Source: Gekko japonicus (taxonomy: Eukaryota). Taken from it: a stretch of DNA of 64,000 nt. The stretch covers positions 1,737,142-1,801,141 of the forward strand of contig NW_015164186.1 in assembly GCF_001447785.1 (NCBI RefSeq), given 5' to 3'. Within the stretch, counting starts at the first letter, position 1, and each line of letters begins with the position of its first letter. A program made the position numbers and the translations under genes. Positions 6,373 through 60,700 of this stretch are shown in pieces. The notes under the pieces were generated by a model. It worked only from the letters and a program-made list of their open reading frames with translations. It was not told where the DNA came from and did no database searches.

Positions 6373-7273
6373 CTACCAATAAGGGTCACGGATCTCTGAC
6401 CGCCGCCAGGTCTGCAAGCGAGAGAGGACCAAAGCTGCAGCCCGAGAGGTCCCCAGAGGCTCCCCAGCCCCAATAGTGCTCTTTGCCAGCCGCGAAAGGG
6501 CACCGGGAGGGGAAGCAGCCACCACCTGGCGTATTCTGTAGTTCTTCCCTTGGTTGTTGTCCCAGTAGACTTTTGGGCCGGACTGGAAGGAGATACAGAA
6601 CTCAACAGACCCGCAAAGAACTGGACTTTTGGGCAGAGCCACCTCAAAGGAAAATGCATCCGTGTCCATATAGCCGTATGTATTGTGCAGATACTGACAA
6701 CAGATGTCCTGGAAAGTCTTCCAGGAGTCAAAGGTGATCCGGATGTACACTTTCTTCTCGTAACTAATGTTTCTGACTTTGACAGTCCCAGAAAGGGACT
6801 TCTCTTGGATCAGGCAGCTTTCCAAGGAAACCAAACTGCTCTGTAGGCGACTGCGAAAAGCGGAATAGTCAGCAGAGGGTTGGGAGAAGTCCAGCACGTA
6901 CTTTATCATCTCAAGCCGGGGGGCCCGACACTTGTTCCGGAAGCTGGTCAGACTGGACAGGGCGTGGTGCAAATCACACAGGTCTTCCTCGATCTTGGAG
7001 AAGATCCGTACGGCTGTGAGCGAGAGGCCCTTCATGTCAGCAAAGACCACCTTCTTCTTCTTTTTGGCCCGGCAGCCCTTGGCGCCCTCCTGCCTCTCGG
7101 GTTCAACGCAGAGGCAAGACCTCAAGGGCTGGTGCCCCAGGCCGCCTCGCAGCTCCTCATAGGAGTCCAGCAGCTTACGGATAGGAGGAGGGTGGCTCAG
7201 GCAAAGCCGCATGGCCCGGTCTCCTGGCGTGGCTCGGGGCACAATGGCCCGTGTACTGAGCACCTGGAAAAGG
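6373..7273 (-). CDS. PPP1R3C-like glycogen-targeting PP1 regulatory subunit, coding exon 2 (CDS join 9681..9694, 6373..7273; 304 aa)
   Basis: Open frame with AMRLCLSHPPP, the RVxF motif KKVVFAD plus KGLSLT, LDFSQPSADY and a CBM21 domain (GTVKVRNISYEKKVYIRITFDSWK...WDNNQGKNY). The acceptor CCTTTCCTTGCTTTCAG ends at 7274 and the phase fits exon 1. Confidence 0.93.
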
Positions 7274-7640
7274 CTGAAAGCAAGGAAAGGGGTTAGTGGC
7301 CACCTTGGAGATGCCACGTAAGGACTGGAAATGACCTGCAACTTAGGGCTGCTGCTTCACATGCGCCTAACTGCTCCAAACATACAGAAAATCAGAAAAA
7401 GTACTCATCATATCATGCCAGCCTCCATGTTCACTCCCATCCTGGAAAGCTGATGTACGCAAGGGCTTTTCCATACATGCCTCAGTGACAAAATAGCACA
7501 GAGGCAAATACATACATTCAAACTACAGTTTAAATGATCTTCAAGGGTGCATGTGTGCATCCTTTTATTTGGAGATGCTGGGGATTGAACGTGGGACTTT
7601 CTGCATTCAAAGCAGATGCTCTGCCAATGAGCCCCACCCC

Positions 7641-10093: not shown

Positions 10094-11064
10094 ACAAATT
10101 AAACCATCCCCTATTCCAGATCTGCTGTGTCTCTCTGGCTAAAAGCTTTAGATTTGACCATAGGAGATCTGAGTGCTCCGCTATGGATCCTTAGGCAAAC
10201 CACATTCTCACTCCCAGCCTCAGCAGCACCACATGCAAAATAGGAATATCAGTAGACTGCCTCACAGAGGTGTTGAGAGAACAAAGACTTAAAAGTACTT
10301 TAAGCATTCAAGGCTACCTAAGGCTTTTATCTCTGAATTTAACGAGGCTAGGATGGATGAGAACACATTCCAGGAGATCTAACAGTAAAAGAGCCAATTG
10401 CCCATGGTTTGCTGGAAAATCCAGCAACACTGTAATAGTAAAAAATGCGCAAATAAATCTAGCGAGCAAAGCTTCCCCCCATTGCCTCTTTTTTTTGGTT
10501 GGGCTACACCAGTTGAATTTTTCCCTCTTAGGCAAAAAGAAAAGAGTTGGCAATCCGCTTTGGAAGCTGTTTGGAAGCACAAATTAAACCATCCCCTATT
10601 CCAGATCTGCTGTGTCTCTCTGGCTAAAAGCTTTAGATTTGACCATAGGAGATCTGAGTGCTCCGCTATGGATCCTTTAGCAAACCACATTCTCACTCCC
10701 AACCTCAGCTGCACCACATGCAAAATAGGAATATCAGTACACTGTCTCACAGAGGTGTTGGGAGAACAAAGACTTAAAAGTACTTTAAGCATTCAAGGCT
10801 ACCTAAGGCTTTTATCTCTGAATTTAACGAGGCTAGGATGGATGAGAACACATTCCAGGAGATCTAACAGTAAAAGAGCCAATTGCCCATGGTTTGCTGG
10901 AAAATCCAGCAACACTGTAATAGTAAAAAATGCGCAAATAAATCTAGCGAGCAAAGCTTCCCCCCATTGCCTCTTTTTTTTGGTTGGGCTACACCAGTTG
11001 AATTTTTCCCTCTTAGGCAAAAAGAAAAGAGTTGGCAATCCGCTTTGGAAGCTGTTTGGAAGCA
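10094..11064. repeat. 485-bp near-perfect tandem duplication (10094-10579 / 10579-11064)
   Basis: ACAAATTAAACCATCCCC...GCTGTTTGGAAGCA occurs twice with only a handful of differences. The ORF track shows the duplicated ORFs. Confidence 0.95.
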
Positions 11065-11099
11065 TTCGTCAGCACGGTGTAGTGGCTATAATGCTGGAA

Positions 11100-11352
11100 T
11101 TAGATAAACATATGGAACAGAGGTACATCAGTGGCTATTAGCCACGAGGTATGGATAGGAACTCTCAGTCTGGGGCAAGTGATGCTCTGTATTCTTGGTG
11201 CTTGGTGGGGGGGCAACAGTGGGAGGGCTTCAAGTGTCCTGGCCCCACTGCTGGACCTCCTGATGGCACCTGGTATTTTTGGCCACTGTGTGACAGTGTT
11301 GGACTGGATGGGCCATTGGCCTGATCCAACATTGGCTTCTCTTATGTTCTTA
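11100..11352 (+). mobile_element. CR1 LINE 3' end nested in a tRNA-derived SINE
   Basis: TTAGATAAACATATGGA...GGCTATTAGCCA...CTGATCCAACATTGGCTTCTCTTATGTTCTTAT. SINE A-box-like and B-box-like halves lie on either side. Confidence 0.7.
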
Positions 11353-21225: not shown

Positions 21226-21576
21226 TAAAGTAAAGGTAAAGGTTCCCTTGCTCGAAAGCCAGTCGAATCCGACTCTAGGGTTGCGGTGCTCATCTCCGTT
21301 TCAAAGCCGAAGAGCCAGCGCTGTCCGAAGACGTTTCCGTGGTCATGTGGCCGGCATGACTAAACACCAAGGCGCACGGAACGCTGTTACCTTCCCACCG
21401 AAGTGGTCCCTATTTATCTACTTGCAATTTCTTGCTTTCGAACTGCTAGGTTGGCAGGAGCTGGAACTAGAGACGGGAGCCCACTCCGTCATGCGGCACC
21501 CGGGTCTCGAACTGCTGAACTACTGACCTTCCACAGCCTGCAGTTCAGCATCTTAACCACTTGAGCCACCGCAGCT
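21226..21576 (-). mobile_element. Full-length Sauria SINE
   Basis: tRNA-like head, GTAGATAAATAGGGACC core, GTCATGCCGGCCACATGACC and an (ACCTTT)n tail. 12-bp TSD CCTAATGTCGTG at 21214-21225 and 21577-21588. Confidence 0.9.
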
Positions 21577-22339
21577 CCTAATGTCGTGGATAGGACAACA
21601 AAAGATTGTCCACTTTTCTTGACTGGTCCAACTCCATGTCTTTAAAAGAGGAGCCCGATGCAGACACAGTAAGGAAGGAAACCTTTTCTTGGCAAGAAGA
21701 TAAACCTTCACCCGATCAATTTCCCCATGCCGTGTTGCAGTTAAAGGCATAGATGTGGCACCTGTTAAAAGTTGGTCATAATGTAATTACTGTGCATGCT
21801 TAGCTATTTTGCATGCTTGTATTAATCACAGGGCAGGGTGGAAAGTTTGCAAGGCTCCCTGCACCCTAGATACCTTTGCTCAGAGACCACTCTGCCTCTT
21901 AACTGTCACCCAAGTCTCTCTTTATAAGGATTTTAGAAACCTGCTTCTTTTATTTAAAAAAGGAAGTTGTTTTGAATGCTGAATGGGAAGGAGTTCTGAC
22001 TCAGAGGCAGATTATCTGCTTTGCATGCTGAAGGTCCCAGGTTCAATCCTTGGCATCGCTAGTTAAGAGGATCAAAGTAGTAGATGATGTGAAAAGACCT
22101 CTTCCAGAGGACCTAGAGAGCCAGTTGGAGTAGACAAGACTGACCTGGGCAGACTAGTGGTCTGACTCATGACAAGGCAGCTTTTTGTGTTCATGAATTT
22201 TGCTCTCTGTACTAATTTTAACATTTGCTGAGTGTCATGGTTTCATCCCCTAGACCCTTGGCTCTCACCCAGGCTGGAAGTTTGACTCATGCTCCCATGT
22301 GCAGCTGGCTGGGATGAAAGGTTTAAATTATTTCTACTT

Positions 22340-24105
22340 GCCTATCTGAAACAGCAGCTAGAACGGAAAAACATTTGAACAGAGTTCTCTGCTCTAATTG
22401 CCTTAATTGAAACTGCAATAATTTATCAACAATACAACAGCTTGCAAGATTATAACAACAATACAATAGCTATAATAGCTATTTTACCTTAAAGAAACAT
22501 TTTCCTGTAGCTTACTCACAAGTAGGATGGATTCAACAAAAAGAAGCAAGAGAGCTAGAGATACAGAAGATACAACTCCTCTTCCAGTAAGTAAACAGAA
22601 GAAGATAAAGGATTATTTTGTAACCAAGGAGACTAAAGAAACCCTAGTTTTTAATATTCCTATATCAAACAGATATGCTCCTCTTGATCAACCTGCTACC
22701 CTGGAGTCCACTTTGAATACGCCTCCTGATTTAGCTACTCCAGAGTGTATCGTGGATACTCAAGCATTACAACAATTATCTACGAAAGCAGGGCTGCCTG
22801 ACAACTTAGGGAAGGATTTATGTATGTTAACTGCAAAGACAGTTAAATGTATATTTGAGGCATTACGTGAAATAAGAAGCAACCTTGAAGGGATTACTAA
22901 AGTGATAGCTAAACTTGTGAGACCAGCGACACTTCCAAATGCAGCTGGCAATGCAGCTGATGTTTTACACACAGGCACGACTCCAAAAGATGACAGCATA
23001 GGACAAAAGCTAACTCATAGCAAGGGACTTTACAACTTGACTTTACAAGCTCACAAGGTCTGTATTACAGTGACCCACTACAGGGGTATGATGCCTAACT
23101 GGAAGTCTGTAAAACAGGCTGCTTTACATCTGAGATCCCTTTTGCCAGAGTACACTGCTGCAGTTGACCTAATCTCATTAGAAGTATTACCTAGTCCATA
23201 CCATGCACAGAGATTACTGCTGAACTTCAAGACTTCCAAAATGCCCACATTGATCCTGAAATATAGGAGCTACTTGTCGTCAAAAGGAGTTCTACCAACT
23301 AGGGTTTTTGTCAACACCACCATCACTCCCTTGTGTCCTAAAGGAAGGTTCACAGGTTCTACAGTGACAGACATAAGGGCTTATGCCCATAAGTCACCAA
23401 GCGTTGACATGCACTTTAAAAGCACCTCAACTGGAACACCTATGGACATTGATAACAATAGAGGTTGCTCATTCCTGGAAAACTCAATTGAAGGGGACTT
23501 AATTAAATCCTTTCCAAAAATGCCTGAAGAGGAACAAACAGACATCATATAATGATTGGACTGGCTAAAAACCGAACTTTGGAAAGCTAAAGAAAATGAG
23601 ACATCTCAAAGACTGCCCTTTGCTACAGAAATTGATACTGTGGCATCTAACTCAAGTGCTGCAGTTGAAATCCCTGCAACTAGACAACTGGAGGGAAATC
23701 CTAGAGATAGTCAGGGACGGCTTCCTTGTAAGCCAACAGGTGGACAAAGGGCTACTGGTGGGCTACCTGCAAATGGCTGTATATTCTTAGACCCTGAGGA
23801 TAATCTAAATAAGATAGAACAAGAAGTCTGACAACTAAAGTTTCTGTCTTGGAAGCTTGGGGGGTGGCGAAATAAGCTTCACGACCCTGATTTTTTAGAT
23901 TTCCTGCAAGGTTATCATATAATTTTTCTTCAGGAAACTTGGAGTCAGGATCTAGAACAGCTCTCTATTAAGGGTTACAGGTCTTTACAAGTTCCCGCAG
24001 TTAAAATTCATTCAAAAGGCCGGGGTTCTGGAGGTCTGGCAATTTTCATAACAGTAGATCTGGATGTTGAACTACAAGTACTTGCCTACCTTCAACTGCA
24101 CCATG
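22340..24105 (+). mobile_element. 5' half of a two-ORF APE-type non-LTR retrotransposon (possibly RTEX/L2-like): ORF1 plus N-terminal endonuclease, RT missing
   Basis: ORF1 22527-23831 is in one frame, with internal TAA-TGA at 23550-23555. It continues in frame as QLKFLSWKLGGW...DFLDFLQGYHIIFLQETW...KGRGSGGLAIFI, which carries the APE motifs SW(N), QETW and GG(V/L)AI. Outer boundaries are approximate. Confidence 0.8.
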
Positions 24106-24609
24106 CAGACGTTTTACTTAGTTATCTGTCCCTGTGCCTTTAACAGCACCTTGATCTGAAGACAGCTGGTCTTTATTTCTATAACATGAAAAGCTTGTCT
24201 ATTTCCGCAGATTAAGTGGTTGTTAAACTCACAGGAGCCAGCCAGGCCCAGAATTCTCTGGTCAGCTGGCAATCCAAGAGAACATTCACAACTGTACAAA
24301 GGTGACTGATGAATTTTGGAATTGCAGTGATGCACGCATGTTAAGCTATGTGTGATTCATTTACACGGGTAGTATACGCTGTGACAGTACACTTGTGCAT
24401 TCTGTTTGTGGGCATACAGCAGACTTTTAGACTCACCCTTCTACCCCCCCCCCAGCCATCCCTGCCCCCTGTTTGCTAACTGTTACATTAACCTTTGCTG
24501 GGACTTGTTAGGTAGATTACAGCGCCCTCCAGCCTCCTGAGCGACTAGAGCCGTGCTCTGAGAGAGAGGGGCAGCAAAAAACGCAAGATGAAGGCCAAGA
24601 TGTTTTCAG

Positions 24610-25179: not shown

Positions 25180-25478
25180 ATGAGAACACAAAGATGATGC
25201 ACACTGCATCAGGTTAATCAAATAAAGAAATTTGCTTTTGGCCATCTTCTCGCTTTCTTTGACTAGATTCCAGGAATCCCACTTCTGTCAGAGGTCTGAT
25301 TCAGAACTGCACATTTTGTGCAAAACCGCTTGCCAGCAACTGCCCTGTGGCAACCCCAGTTACGTACACAGTTTACACTCTTGCTAGCTTTGTAGTGCAT
25401 GCATCTTTGTCCTTTATTTCAATAGAAATAAAGGGCAAAGCGACCCCCCCCAATCATCCCCCTTCCCCATCTACCTAC

Positions 25479-25576
25479 TCTTTAGCAAAGGCAAACTCTT
25501 CCGGGGAAAGGATGGATGGGTCCCCCTCGGCCCGAGTCTTCTCCTTCTCCAAGATGTGGGGGAAATATTTCTCAAT
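25479..25576 (-). CDS. GINS4: GINS4 coding exon 4
   Basis: IEKYFPHILEKEKTRAEGDPSILSPEEFAFAKE; AG/GT boundaries; 98 nt. Confidence 0.96.
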
Positions 25577-27163
25577 CTGCAAAAGGAAAGACACAGCATA
25601 AGAACTGCAGAGCCATCTGTATACGGTAAAGTGCTCTAAAGAACTGCAACAGTGATGGCTGCCAAGGACCGGAGAAAGGCTCTAATGAAACCCAAGACTG
25701 ATCCAAAACCTCCCCAGGAATGTGAATCTTACAAAATGCTCCTGCCCAGCAAAGCATCCCCTCAGATGATGGTGCCTCCCATTCTCCAGGCTTAACGTGT
25801 GCCACAGCAGGGCACAAGGAAGGCAGAGAGCCCCGGAAGCAGCCACATTAGCCAGGTCCCCCAGCACAGCAGATGCCATTGTCCAAAAGCCACTCAGCAC
25901 ATCACTTCCTTCTACTCCACTACTTACGGCTCAACTATGCAAGATCTATGCATGGGAATTCCATCAGCATACACTTGATCAGTGGGAAAAACAATTGCTC
26001 CCCCAGGGCTGCCTCAGGTCAGGCAGAAAACGTGCCAGGGAGGACTTAAAGCCCTGCTCCCCCCAGATCACAATCCTGTTATGAATCAGATCCCACACAC
26101 TTGGTTTTCAGAGGAAAAACTCAGTTCTGATGAGTAACGCCACTTCAGTTGTGAACAGGGCAATCCATCTATAGCAAATGGCTTTCAGACGACACCTTGA
26201 GGAAATCTAGGGCTTGTCAAAATGTTCTCACAACTCCTCATTGAGAAGGCCAGTAAGTGTGGACAACATTCTCAGAAAGGCTTGTCATTATTTATTTAAA
26301 ATATTTATACCCTGTCTTTCAGCTAAAGCATTCCCACTGTGTCTAACCAAAAATTCAATTCCAAAATTCAATGAAAAATACAGAGATACAAAGCAGCCAA
26401 CAGGTTCCCAACGCCATTCAGTCTCCTCCGCCCGCCCTCCAAAGGATCAGAACTGTTTTGCATTCACTGTGACTGAATTACATCTGTTTATTACAGACTG
26501 TTTCCTTTTACACAGAATGCAGCCGTTGCAGTTTATAGGAAGCAAACAGGACAGAGAGTGGCTCTTTAAAACCCTTTTTACTTCAAGCCATTTTTTTCTT
26601 ACTGAGAATAACGTCCCATGAGTTGCTTTCTTGACCGACCATTACAAAAAGGATGCAAGAACTAGATAAGAACATTATACTTCCACCCTAAAAAGAAGAG
26701 AGAAAGGGACCCCCCCCATGGTGTTCCTCAAGAAAGGTGCTTCAAAGTCAAAGGGTCACCTGCCCGCCACTCTTCTCCTCTCTAACAGAGCACACCCAGA
26801 GCAGGACTTCATAGACCACCTCCACAGTCGTCTCCTGCAACATGCAGCTTCAGAGCCCATTTCAGGCCTGGCAGATGCCCCGTGGAAACTGAAAACATGC
26901 CCTAGGAAGGCATCCCAGAATTCTCTGCAACACAACAAAAGCCAGAATTGCTTTCAGAATCCTATCCAGAACTGAATAGATGCCACAGGAGAGAGTTCTG
27001 GAAAGGGAGGTTGGGACCATTTAACAATTCTTGCTGGGAAATACAAGAAGTCTCTGGAGAGATAATGGGGCAGGTGGCTGGTCCCTGAAGAGGCAGCCCC
27101 TGGCAAGCCTCCATGCAGAACAGCTTGTTACATATGCCAAATGGGTCAAAAGGGGGCCAATAC

Positions 27164-51854: not shown

Positions 51855-53612
51855 CTGACACAAAATTATTCAGGATGGTGAGCAAGGTTGACTATGAAGA
51901 GCTCCAGGAGGATCTCCACAAACTAAACGAGTGAGCAACAGTGTGGCAAATGAAGTTCACTATGGGCGTGGTCAGACGCGCTGTTTGATCTGGTGTGTGA
52001 CGGTTCANNNNNNNNNNNNNNNNNNNNNNNNNNNNNNNNNNNNNNNNNNNNNNNNNNNNNNNNNNNNNNNNNNNNNNNNNNNNNNNNNNNNNNNNNNNNN
52101 NNNNNNNNNNNNNNNNNNNNNNNNNNNNNNNNNNNNNNNNNNNNNNNNNNNNNNNNNNNNNNNNNNNNNNNNNNNNNNNNNNNNNNNNNNNNNNNNNNNN
52201 NNNNNNNNNNNNNNNNNNNNNNNNNNNNNNNNNNNNNNNNNNNNNNNNNNNNNNNNNNNNNNNNNNNNNNNNNNNNNNNNNNNNNNNNNNNNNNNNNNNN
52301 NNNNNNNNNNNNNNNNNNNNNNNNNNNNNNNNNNNNNNNNNNNNNNNNNNNNNNNNNNNNNNNNNNNNNNNNNNNNNNNNNNNNNNNNNNNNNNNNNNNN
52401 NNNNNNNNNNNNNNNNNNNNNNNNNNNNNNNNNNNNNNNNNNNNNNNNNNNNNNNNNNNNNNNNNNNNNNNNNNNNNNNNNNNNNNNNNNNNNNNNNNNN
52501 NNNNNNNNNNNNNNNNNNNNNNNNNNNNNNNNNNNNNNNNNNNNNNNNNNNNNNNNNNNNNNNNNNNNNNNNNNNNNNNNNNNNNNNNNNNNNNNNNNNN
52601 NNNNNNNNNNNNNNNNNNNNNNNNNNNNNNNNNNNNNNNNNNNNNNNNNNNNNNNNNNNNNNNNNNNNNNNNNNNNNNNNNNNNNNNNNNNNNNNNNNNN
52701 NNNNNNNNNNNNNNNNNNNNNNNNNNNNNNNNNNNNNNNNNNNNNNNNNNNNNGGGAAAGAGATCTTGGGGACATAGTGGATAGCTCAATGAAAGTGTCA
52801 ACCCAGTGTTCCACAGCAGTAAAAAAAGGCCAGTTTTATGTTGGGGATTATTAGGAAAGGGACTGAAAATAAGACATCAAATAATATTTTATTTTTATTT
52901 ACATTATTTACTTTACTTGCAGTCTGCCTTTCTCACTGATACCTAAGGCAGATTACACAATGTAAGTCAATGCCCTGTATAGATCTAGGGAGTGGCTCCG
53001 TTTGGAATACTGTGTGTAGTTCTGGTCACTCCATCTCAAAACAAACATTGCAGACCTGGAAAACATACAGAAGAGGGCAGCCAAGGTTATTAGGAGGTGA
53101 CCTATGAGGAAAGACTGAAGAGTTTCCTCATTCCCTATGAGGAAAGACTGAAGAGTTTTGGGACTTTTCAGTTTAGAAAAGTGATGACTAAGGGGGGGGG
53201 GACATGACAGAGGTTTATAAAATGTGCACAGAGCAGAGGGAGTGGACAGAGAAAACACTGGAATTTGGGGGTACCCAATGAAGGTGGATGAGCAGTAGAT
53301 TCAGGATGGGCAAAAAGAACTACTTATTTACTCAAATAATTAAAATGTAGAATTCACTGCCAGATGATGTAGTGATAGCTGCAGGAATAGATGGCTTTAA
53401 AAGGGAAAAAAAGCCATTGGTGACAAAAGAGACCCTCCACATGTAAAGGCAGTAAACCTCTGAATACCAGTGCCAGGAGGCAATATGCGGGGAAGGCCTT
53501 CACCTCTGTATCCTGTTGCTGGCCCTCTAGAGTAGCTGAATGGCTGCTGTGTGAAACAGGATGCTGGACTAGATGGACCACTGGTCTGATCCAACAGGGC
53601 TCTTCTTATGAC
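51855..53612 (+). mobile_element. Degenerate CR1 LINE 3' portion spanning the gap
   Basis: ADTKLFRMV...ELQEDLHKL...WQMKF, ERDLGDIVDSSMKVSTQC and LEYCV.FWSLHLK, ending in CTGATCCAACAGGGCTCTTCTTATG. Confidence 0.85.
52008..52753. other. Assembly gap (746 N)
   Basis: Run of N. Confidence 1.
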
Positions 53613-57721: not shown

Positions 57722-60700
57722 GCATACCGGAACCAGAGCGAGCAAAGGATCTAAGCAACAAAGACTTTCCCGATACTACGTAACAACTATCGACAATAAA
57801 TGTGAGTGAAGGAACTGTAAAATAATAAGCATTAAGTGGGAATCGGCAGATGGCAAAACTTCAAGTCTAGAAAGGGGGAGGGAAGCTTCTCAGAGGGGTA
57901 GGAATAACCCTACCCTAGACAAAACAGCGAGAAAAGTAATAAAGGAAAACTAGAAGCCAAGCTGAAATAAAGCCAAGAGCTTGCCTAACTCACATTGAGC
58001 GCAGAGAGCTACATCTTAGATCACAAGGAAGAATCTTGGAACTTTTGGGAACTTTTGTCCTTAACGTAAACAATGTCTCAGTGAGGGGGGAAAATGTTGG
58101 CCAGAGGGAAACTGAACACAGGAACTGCCAGCCTTGCATCACCAGTCACAAGACCGGAACCAACTGCAGACATTGCCAGCATGATCTCTGAAGCCTTGTG
58201 CCCTCTGCTGGATCAGATGACTAATCTCAACAAAAACTTTGATGTGTTACAGAAAGAGCTTAAAGAGACTAAGATAAAAACAGAGAAGACAGCCAAAAAG
58301 CTGAAAAAGGTTGAACACAAGACAAAAACATTGGATCAAAGAATGGAGATAGTGGATAAAGTGAGGACCTCTGTACAACAATAACTATTACAGCTCCAAG
58401 TGGAAAGATCAATGTCTATCTTGAGACTTCAAGGTGTCCCAGAAAAAAAAATGAGAATCTGAAAGAGATCTTAAACGAAGCATTGGCTCCCCTGATTAAA
58501 TATAAACCCGAAGCATTAGAAGCAGACATGGATATAGTGTACAGGACATATTCAGAATTTGTTAAGAAAAATAACCTTCCAGGGGAAATATTTGTAAAAT
58601 TCTCTAAAAGTTCTACAAGAGACCTGATTCTTAAAGCCTGTAATGGGACAATATTAAAAATTCAAGAAGAAATTAAGATCTTAAAGGATGTTCTATTTGA
58701 GATAAGAAAGAAGAGGAAGCAATACAAAAACATCACATCTTTTCTCCAGAGCAATTCAACTCAGTATCGATGGATTATCCCAGAAGAACTCATTGTCAAC
58801 TTTAATGGAAAAAAAGAAAAGATTGACACTTTTGCTAAAGCTGAGCTGTTTCTGAAGCAACGTCAAAGTCCAGCAGCAGATAAAGGAAAAGCAGAGGACA
58901 ATAAAGATACACCAAAGAAAAGCGAACAACATGAGCCAGGCAATGACAGTTCCTCATCATCTTCTTCGGTATCAATGGGTGAGATTTTTGATTCTGACTC
59001 TGAATCTAAAATGGGAGCAGCTGCTCCCAGATCATACAAGGTTAAATTCCCATGGGAGAAGAAGAAGAAACGTAAAGGAAAGAAAATAAATCTATGAAGA
59101 TCCGAGATTCCCCTTTGAAATTGTTTTAACAATGGTGATGTAAACTACTCAATCTAATACTCCCCCCCCAAATGGGGAATTTTTTATTGCATTTTTATTA
59201 AAACTACAAACTATAACAGAAAAAAGGGAGGGGACTACATTTAGGGGATAAAGAAAAGATACCCACTACTGACTAAAAACCCAAGAGAGAAGATCTTCTA
59301 ATCAACTTGAATACACATCTAGTCTTAATCATATTAATCTCATTATTTATTTTATTTTATTTAATTTTTATTTATCTTTCAACTTTCTACCCCGCTCGAA
59401 CCCCCAGGGGGTCTCTGAGCGGCTTACAGTTAATCGCTTATCCCTACCTATGGCCACATATGCTGGGGATGGGGACTGCCCTACCGGCACCCTGTGGAGG
59501 TCTTTATCTTCTTCCTCCCGGTCGGCTTGTCGGCTCGGCTTTATTCTTCCTCCTCTGGCCCTCCCAGCTGGACTCTTAAAAATTCTCTCGCTTTCAGAAC
59601 AGAGTCAATCTTTTCTTTTTTATCCTTGATTTTGAAGGTGACGCATTCTGGAATTAGCCATCTATATCCAATTGAATTTGTTTGAAGAAAAAGAACAAGG
59701 TCTTTATATTTCTTTCTCCGCTGTCTTATTTCAAATGGAATACCCTTCAGTACTCTGATAACACTCTCCCCAGCTCTCAGGGGTGCCCCAGATACTGCTT
59801 TCAGGATTGCATCCCGTACATGCCTCTTTGAGAATCTAACAATAATTTCCCCAGGCAGATTATTTTTCTTTATGTATCCTGAATATGACCTATAGGCCAC
59901 ATCCATTTCGCTTAGCAAAAATTCTGCCTTCATCTCTGTCACTGGGGCCAGTATTTCACTCATCATTTCCTTCAGATTCTCTCCTTAGTCTCTGGCATGT
60001 CCTGAAAGTGAAGGATCATATTAGCTGTTTCCATTTGTAATTGCAGCAACTGCTCTTCTGTAGAAACTTGCTTTTTTCCAGTTTTTGTACTTTCTTCTTC
60101 ACCTTTTGGGTAGTGGCGTCCACTTCTTTCACCTTCTCATTTGTTTGATTCATCATTTTCAGAGTCTCGCTTATCTGATTTTGTTGAGTGGTGATACACT
60201 GAGTCATTGATGTCATCTGCTCTTTGAGATTATTCATTTGGTCCAGCAGGTGGTGCATGGAGTCTGCCAAAGTCTTTGCCCGCTCGTTGGCTCCTTCCGG
60301 TTTTGGGCTCTCAGTTACTTTCGATTTCAGATGTTTCGCTTTCTCTGTCCTCTTCCCCACTATCTTTTTTGCTTTGTTTACTTTCGCAGACTTTTTGAAA
60401 GTCTCTGAATATGCGCTTAAACACTTGCACTCGCCTTGGTAAGTACTCCTTAACAGTTTTAACCGTTTATACTTCCACTCCTCCCCTCAATCGCTCTAAA
60501 GTCTATGCACTTGAGAGGCGTCCCTCCCCCTCTCGCTTTATCTTCTGTTCCGTGGGGTGGGGGTGGGGAGTTTCTTTTTTTTAGTCAATGCTTAAACGAC
60601 TCACGTTCATAATCGGTCCACAGACTTCGTTTACACTCCATTTCTAACGCTCGATCTCCTGCGCTTGCCCCGGTCAGTGTCACTTAGTCCATTTGGTATC

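Follow-up and report, generated by a model that had tools for sequence, protein, structure and literature searches.

A candidate readthrough stop codon between the two open reading frames of a vertebrate LINE

Introduction

Two-ORF long interspersed nuclear elements (LINEs) have to translate their second open reading frame (ORF2) from a single capped RNA, and how they do so has long been debated and is partly solved for L1 and SART1. The long terminal repeat (LTR) element SIRE1 is said to use stop-codon readthrough between gag and pol. Gamma- and epsilonretroviruses are established cases of readthrough into pol (PMC13517186), and it is also described for the LTR elements Tca2 and VdLTRE5, which have no CARYYA sequence (PMC3441728). 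Among non-LTR elements, readthrough was suggested for Group 3 of Paramecium tetraurelia from consensus sequences only (PMC5405496). Here we describe the ORF1/ORF2 junction of a LINE in a 64,000-nucleotide stretch of contig NW_015164186.1 (the window), in which an apurinic/apyrimidinic endonuclease (APE) frame directly follows the TGA that ends ORF1, and we propose that this TGA is a candidate for programmed readthrough.

The hexamer CAR-YYA placed 3' of a stop codon is reported to work in plants, yeast and mammals without downstream structure (PMC13517186). Among viruses, the same source reports this type I signal in plant, not animal, viruses. In a mammalian reporter UGA-CARYYA gave ~15% readthrough, with UGA as good as UAG and an effect of each of the six bases (PMC4132726), and adenines at positions -1 and -2 are reported to favour readthrough (PMC4615788).

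Results

The junction between ORF1 and ORF2

The junction codons of the element are GAA GTC TGA CAA CTA AAG TTT CTG TCT TGG AAG. The original prediction stated that TGA ends ORF1 at 23829-23831 and that the N-terminus of an endonuclease continues in the same frame, and both the codons and a Pfam match agree with it. The frame past the TGA matches Exo_endo_phos (PF03372) with an E-value of 1.2e-4, which falls short of the curated cut-off, and is 54% identical to the related protein P0008 across 89 aa. In exonuclease III it aligns with the first strand, at E 0.31. The codons at 23832-37, CAA-CTA, were rightly recognized as an exact CAR-YYA directly 3' of the stop. That neither a spacer nor an in-frame ATG precedes the next stop was borne out in a listing of ATGs: the spacer between the ORF1 stop and the endonuclease frame is zero, and at 23700-24143 no ATG is in frame, the sole ones (23773, 24064 and 24103) being out of frame. 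With zero spacer and no ATG overlapping GTC TGA CAA, the junction also differs from the spacer scheme of L1 and the overlap scheme of SART1, as had been claimed.

Counted over both strands, the window has 5760 stop triplets, 17 of which (0.30%) are followed by CARYYA, and the in-frame codon frequencies of the element predict it after a stop at 0.4%. At the two hexamer positions, endonuclease relatives carry L at the second in 36/60 and Q at the first in 7/60. The endonuclease fold thus accounts in part for this Leu; taken by itself the hexamer is a hint and no proof, and we estimate its real chance at the junction to be 1-3%.

A spliced RNA could remove the stop and an internally initiated RNA could bypass it, which we consider highly improbable. 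A donor-like GTAAG (23728) and two AG dinucleotides (23839, 23854) are present, but no pyrimidine tract lies ahead of 23839, an acceptor at 23854 would lose the SW(N) strand of the endonuclease, and single splice-motif matches are expected by chance.

Conservation of the ORF1 stop

The copy in the window is a decayed, 3'-truncated two-ORF APE-type LINE, for which a full ORF1 protein (ORF1p) and a reverse transcriptase (RT) are both beyond its capacity, and its junction is a fossil of an active family. ORF1, read from the ATG at 22527, is interrupted in this copy by TAA-TGA at 23550-55. Endonuclease homology stops at ~24083, where 18 of 148 tblastn segments end and past 24113 none continues; therefore, the stop near 24143 belongs to flanking DNA and the copy lacks an RT. 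None of the 148 tblastn segments lies outside 22300-24200, so that the 64-kb window holds no second copy of the element by this search.

For a dead copy, the rival to be dealt with first was that a CGA codon had simply decayed. On that account the family would have one long fused ORF and the junction TGA would have arisen by CpG decay in this copy. The observed/expected ratio of CpG in ORF1 is 0.16-0.19, and one TGA of the copy did arise at an Arg column. To collect relatives, the element, with X at its three stops, was run as a HMMER query against 1.84 billion cluster representatives, which gave 243 hits at E<=0.001; the relatives analysed are the best 150 of these 243, plus two later hits. 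Sixty-five of them are ORF1-like, and an NG[CS][IV] motif is retained near the C-terminus in 21 of these. The ORF1 of 16 of these 21 ends 17-18 residues past the motif Asn, compared with 18 in the window. Over all 21 the distance is 18 residues in 13, 17 in three and 19-20 in two, and three run on; P0016 and P0044 continue past the motif for 28 and 38 residues that contain no endonuclease sequence, and were scored as misses. The 16 relatives that end at 17-18 have a median pairwise identity of 30% and include one near-identical pair, and a random stop would give the shared register with a binomial probability of about 1e-18 if rows are treated as independent. While the internal TGA aligns to Arg in 16/21 relatives, the junction TGA aligns to protein ends; therefore, the former is decay and the latter the true end of ORF1. 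The shared register largely refutes decay at the junction, where two run-on records moreover carry W, not R, and we regard this rival as barely conceivable. All 18 ORF1 ends considered have D, N, Q or E as their final residue and so A at -2, compared with 35% in the preceding linker.

Two word-based homologue searches, one with the endonuclease fragment (longer proteins) and one with ORF1, returned nothing at E<=0.001. Both negatives are weak because the full HMMER scan gave 243 hits. A third word-based search, with an alignment as query, gave six proteins, two of them new, and the ESM Atlas returned generic endonuclease clusters and ORF1 leads under 0.9 only.

Frame and start of ORF2 in related elements

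P0008 represents a second family in which an ORF1 tail and the endonuclease stand in one frame. It crosses the junction in the register of the window, as NGCVVSDQDGDLNLISRDE-W-QLKLLSWN (NGC...SRDE-W-QLKLLSWN). The W codon is one base from TGA; the record may come from a mutated copy with TGG or from a TGA that a gene caller set to table 4 translated as W, and either would point to TGA at this position.

An endonuclease tree was calculated from 85 of the 86 BLASTP endonuclease hits and the window, over 76 columns and with rough support values. Seven of the nine group-mates of the window begin inside the domain past the SWN strand, P0008 is fused via W-Q-L, and P0121 is a chimera without the first strand; thus, an own start before SWN is found in 0/9 of the nearest endonucleases. 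Beyond this group only 4/76 lack the beginning of the domain, and the majority have a start at the first strand or ahead of it (Fisher 2e-6, with rows that are not independent). Truncated matches need a higher identity for listing, which inflates the count of seven; a close relative with its own start would, however, outscore the seven, and none is among the matches listed. The first-strand motif is SWK in the window, with Lys in place of the Asn of SWN in the relatives. P0029, one of the seven, is a 1098-aa endonuclease (EN)-RT protein with a C-terminal zinc finger, an RVT_1 match at E 4.4e-33 and L1 ORF2p as its best PDB match. Such an ORF2 would come out truncated or miscalled from annotation pipelines that require an ATG, as in 7/9 of the nearest database proteins.

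A real stop combined with a missing ATG is accounted for equally well by termination followed by AUG-independent reinitiation at or just past the stop, which would yield a separate ORF2p and make CAA-CTA incidental. AUG-independent initiation of ORF2 has been presented for L1 (PMC5009743), as has termination-reinitiation (PMC5972666), and there is an in-frame CTG at 23844. This CTG has T at both -3 and +4, however, and lies inside the first endonuclease strand. Reinitiation also leaves unexplained the zero spacer together with an exact CAR-YYA (0.3-0.4% per stop), as well as the frame and spacing of P0008. We therefore regard reinitiation as unlikely, although it is the main rival to readthrough.

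Several other linkers were inspected. W-L-P in P0030, W-L-A in P0032 and L-A-N-S-P in P0055 would fit UGA-CUA(G), the other known vertebrate readthrough signal. The W of P0032 is a lead only and is not tied to a stop, because the NG motif is missing in this protein. P0078 and P0152 have HG-VV-YPD upstream of the endonuclease and were rejected as fusions due to an MPQI start-like segment and a longer spacing. A pattern scan of prokaryotic genomes gave 135 matches that reduced to one locus, an off-frame match in a GC-rich bacterial gene without a BLASTX family match, and was discarded.

RNA structure near the stop

The predicted stem-loop (Table 1) was picked because its z was the lowest of 15 windows, and an upstream window reached z -2.6. 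The whole 169 nt after the stop have z -1.5, and no strong structure adjoins the stop. Rfam has no match for the stem-loop region. Type III signals consist of UAG-G and a pseudoknot 8 nt downstream; the window has TGA-C, and the folding programs used are blind to pseudoknots. Selenocysteine insertion was given no weight, the three hits to the selenocysteine insertion sequence (SECIS) having come from a loose, uncontrolled pattern.

Boundaries of the insertion

A direct repeat at 22335-22356 and 24079-24100 (10 exact, 18/22 matching) flanks the 3'-truncated insertion and is a candidate target-site duplication; random stretches of such sizes have an exact 10-mer in common in ~3% of trials, and the repeat is suggestive only. 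The first ATG after the presumed 5' end is that of ORF1 (22527); its context has A at -3 and G at +4. No poly(A) or repeat tail was seen at the truncated 3' end. The copy is thus intact at its 5' side and cut ~250 nt past the stop at its 3' side, the opposite of the usual 5' truncation. A 3' truncation without a tail may reflect priming on a broken RNA.

Table 1 Features of the LINE copy in the window
Feature	Position	Strand	Remarks
Left copy of 10-bp direct repeat	22335..22344	+	Core of an 18/22-nt imperfect repeat; candidate target-site duplication
Putative 5' untranslated region	22345..22526	+	A-rich, no upstream ATG; 5' boundary inferred from the repeat
ORF1, broken in this copy	22527..23831	+	434 codons plus TGA
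PIP-box-like motif QKKIKDYF	22596..22619	+	N-terminus of ORF1p; consensus KQxKIxD
Long helix, residues 92-130	22800..22916	+	Predicted structure, 39 residues, pLDDT 81-95
RRM-like domain, residues 171-263	23037..23315	+	Predicted structure, pLDDT about 87-97
TAA-TGA	23550..23555	+	Two copy-specific nonsense codons, used as decay control; TGA column Arg in 16/21 aligned relatives
C-terminal motif NG[CS][IV]xxDxxxxLxxIxxx	23772..23828	+	Conserved, at a fixed distance from the stop
TGA	23829..23831	+	Natural end of ORF1; proposed readthrough codon; P0008 has W here, as has P0030 at the corresponding position
CAA-CTA	23832..23837	+	Exact CAR-YYA hexamer, encodes Q-L; Q-L also follows W in P0008
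First 84 codons of ORF2 (APE endonuclease)	23832..24083	+	No in-frame ATG; 3'-truncated
Predicted stem-loop	23886..23949	+	Begins 55 nt past the stop; z -2.85; weak, possibly chance
Right copy of 10-bp direct repeat	24079..24088	+	Where endonuclease homology ends

The ORF1 protein

The best relative of ORF1, P0002, covers residues 5-433 (HMMER, E 1.5e-35), and Pfam gave no family for the ORF1 of the window or of four relatives. The structure predicted for ORF1p has a mean predicted local distance difference test (pLDDT) score of 65, with better values for a long helix, probably a coiled coil, and an RNA recognition motif (RRM)-like domain. Fold matches are mostly RRM (best E 6.3e-4), human L1 ORF1p (2w7a) being at rank 21 with E 9.1e-3. 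As modelled, ORF1p is a helix-plus-RRM RNA-binding protein encoded upstream of ORF2, as expected of a LINE.

The N-terminus carries a motif resembling a PCNA-interacting protein (PIP) box, which we presume to have a PCNA-binding role and treat as a candidate only. Its pattern (QxxIxxYF) occurs within the first 70 aa of 11/65 ORF1-like relatives in strict form and of 35/65 in loose form, and in P0018, P0058 and P0083 a second PIP-box-like motif near the C-terminus replaces the NG motif. The PIP box of L1 sits in ORF2p; a readthrough fusion would also carry the one of ORF1p. The NG motif is short and conserved, follows a long unconserved linker and lies 17-18 residues from the end of ORF1p. In a fusion this segment would abut the first endonuclease strand.

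Clade membership

An APE endonuclease stands at the start of ORF2 (PF03372, E 1.2e-4; 86 BLASTP relatives), and an RT is absent from the truncated copy and present in the relative P0029. From the look of the endonuclease and the zinc finger of P0029 we assume an affinity to RTEX (RTE-X), although the element is not filed as a member. The likeness lies in an endonuclease start of the type LxxLSWN...KL.DPDF, in GVKQGC and YADD in the RT and in a GRY...R.C.C...E...H...C tail. RTEX relics are reported to exist in amniotes (PMC5753468). According to PMC3905857 some RTEX ORF1p carry an esterase, whereas the ORF1p of the window does not: neither it nor four relatives have a Pfam match to an SGNH esterase, and the fold matches are of RRM type.

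Other features of the window

SINE-like repeats (short interspersed nuclear elements) at 21230-21580 and 22000-22190 are presumably of squamate types. An exon of GINS4/SLD5 lies at 25475-25582 (-), ~1.4 kb from the LINE and on the opposite strand (PDB match, E 2.5e-13). We call the LINE lizard-type because of this presumed SINE likeness and the vertebrate GINS4 exon. A long ORF at 6376-7356 (-) has a CBM_21 domain (E 2.4e-30), like a glycogen-targeting PP1 subunit, and we take it to belong to the PPP1R3 family. The facing, mutually similar ORFs at 58360-59094 (+) and 59544-60486 (-) have weak, unrelated Pfam matches only; we assume that they resemble L1-type ORF1 proteins. The ORF list further shows a near-identical repeated reading at 10195-11138 (+), a tandem duplication of ~550 nt, and 746 N at 52008-52753 are an assembly gap.

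Discussion

We propose programmed readthrough that yields an ORF1p-EN-RT fusion as the best reading of this junction, and from the aligned sequences we consider it probable. In the active ancestor, ribosomes would start at the ATG of ORF1, mostly terminate at the TGA and release ORF1p. A minority would insert an amino acid at the TGA owing to CAA-CUA and would proceed in frame into the endonuclease and the RT, so that ORF1p-EN-RT would be made at a fixed low ratio, a control that can be likened to that of gammaretroviral Gag-Pol. Three parts of this picture are inferred: the occurrence of readthrough, a conserved hexamer as its cause, and the role of the fusion as the active enzyme. The leaky termination put forward in the original prediction is thereby supported indirectly, via the family-wide end of ORF1 and the missing starts of ORF2. 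Two of its checks were approached through protein relatives. The first, whether the stop is a mutation of this copy, did not refute it, as the end register is common to 16/21 motif-bearing ORF1 relatives, and neither did the second, as the nine nearest endonucleases show no own start.

Several points weigh against readthrough. The conserved end register proves that the stop is real, not that it is leaky. The 44/65 ORF1-like hits without the NG motif (fragments, early stops and other tails) were left uncounted. Control ends have A at -2 in 21/44, which weakens the bias at this position, the last ORF1 codon of the window, GTC, has no A at -2, and the D/N bias at the end of ORF1 may be a protein constraint. 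The DNA of the hexamer was seen in one copy only, the relatives being protein records. P0008 is a thin sample, a single sequence of 129 aa on a 664-nt contig, and its Q-L could be plain protein conservation at 54% identity. In P0030 the W at the stop position is followed by L-P rather than Q-L. The endonuclease group of ten rows that holds the window has support of 93/73 on 76 columns and is not starred, and the starts of its members were called automatically in copies that are decayed or partial.

To these points must be added P0055 and P0050, which bear on another rival. Here ORF2 would start at an upstream out-of-frame AUG that overlaps the tail of ORF1, with a frameshift or another frame in the true family, and the in-frame appearance of the window would be an artefact of this copy. 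P0050 ends at 18 residues, yet its near-copy P0055 enters the endonuclease in the +1 frame relative to the ORF1 tail of P0050, and the jointly encodable run of the two is 9 residues, compared with 2-5 for 16 other tails. In the tree P0055 pairs with P0122 (99/86), whose own start lies 8 residues ahead of SWN, and own starts are found in many distant endonuclease relatives. P0055 may thus be a sign that families without readthrough also conserve the end of ORF1, and one more distant subfamily may use another frame. In the window, the ATG at 23773 is hidden in the NG motif (AAT-GG) with G at +4; its frame is shut after five codons (23790). P0008 independently runs in one frame from the ORF1 tail through the endonuclease, and the +1 frame of P0055 could stem from an indel because this protein is visibly rearranged against P0050. 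We consider a start at an overlapping AUG very unlikely.

A further-reaching version of readthrough is possible, though we regard it as rather doubtful: a whole sub-lineage of vertebrate LINEs would make its EN/RT solely as an ORF1p fusion via a conserved functional UGA-CAR-YYA, and sister subfamilies would have swapped the signal or regained a start codon. If so, the enzyme would be an integral part of the ORF1p oligomer that coats its own RNA, and the junction would be an evolutionary switch between translation strategies, to which W-L-P of P0030 and W-L-A of P0032 (fitting UGA-CUA) would belong. Readthrough as such would give LINEs a third route to ORF2, with a nine-base, structure-free signal and an ORF1p:ORF2p stoichiometry set by a known rule. 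It would offer a simple account of cis-preference, the enzyme being tethered to ORF1p, and would make the element a natural animal user of CAR-YYA.

The open-access literature, as excerpted, holds no description of readthrough in a vertebrate LINE; Repbase Reports and subscription journals lie outside this scope, and an earlier curator note is possible. New here is a candidate vertebrate LINE with what reads as a CAR-YYA junction, whereas the idea of readthrough in non-LTR elements already existed.

As in the gag-pol genes of retroviruses and LTR elements, an RNA-binding structural protein comes first, the enzymes follow an in-frame stop, and the leakiness of the stop would set the ratio. These are, however, LTR elements with protease processing, and Moloney murine leukaemia virus (MoMLV) needs a pseudoknot after UAG-G. 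LINEs are not known to have a protease; therefore, the fusion would remain in one piece in the absence of cleavage by a host enzyme. Silkworm SART1 is likewise a two-ORF APE LINE, but it uses an overlapping UAAUG, and neither UAAUG nor AUGA occurs at the junction of the window. Mammalian L1 is also a two-ORF APE LINE, and the helix and RRM predicted for the ORF1p of the window resemble L1 ORF1p; L1 differs in a 63-nt spacer followed by reinitiation (PMC5972666, PMC5009743), an arrangement that the junction of the window does not have. Paramecium Group 3 elements are APE-type and have ORF1 and ORF2 in one frame with an in-frame stop between them, although they belong to a ciliate clade with a variant genetic code (PMC5405496). 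At the one junction examined, that of RT21873, TGA (1018-1020) is followed by GTG-AGC, not by CAR-YYA, and the endonuclease comes 111 nt later (PMC5405496). With the type I signal of tobacco mosaic virus (TMV) the junction shares the exact hexamer 3' of the stop, a polymerase in the extension and freedom from structure (PMC13517186, PMC4132726). It differs in its stop codon, UAG being the norm there and TGA (UGA) the stop here, and in its host, which here is an animal retroelement. Because UGA equals UAG with this hexamer in the mammalian reporter, the comparison stands, and the LINE junction would work like that of TMV.
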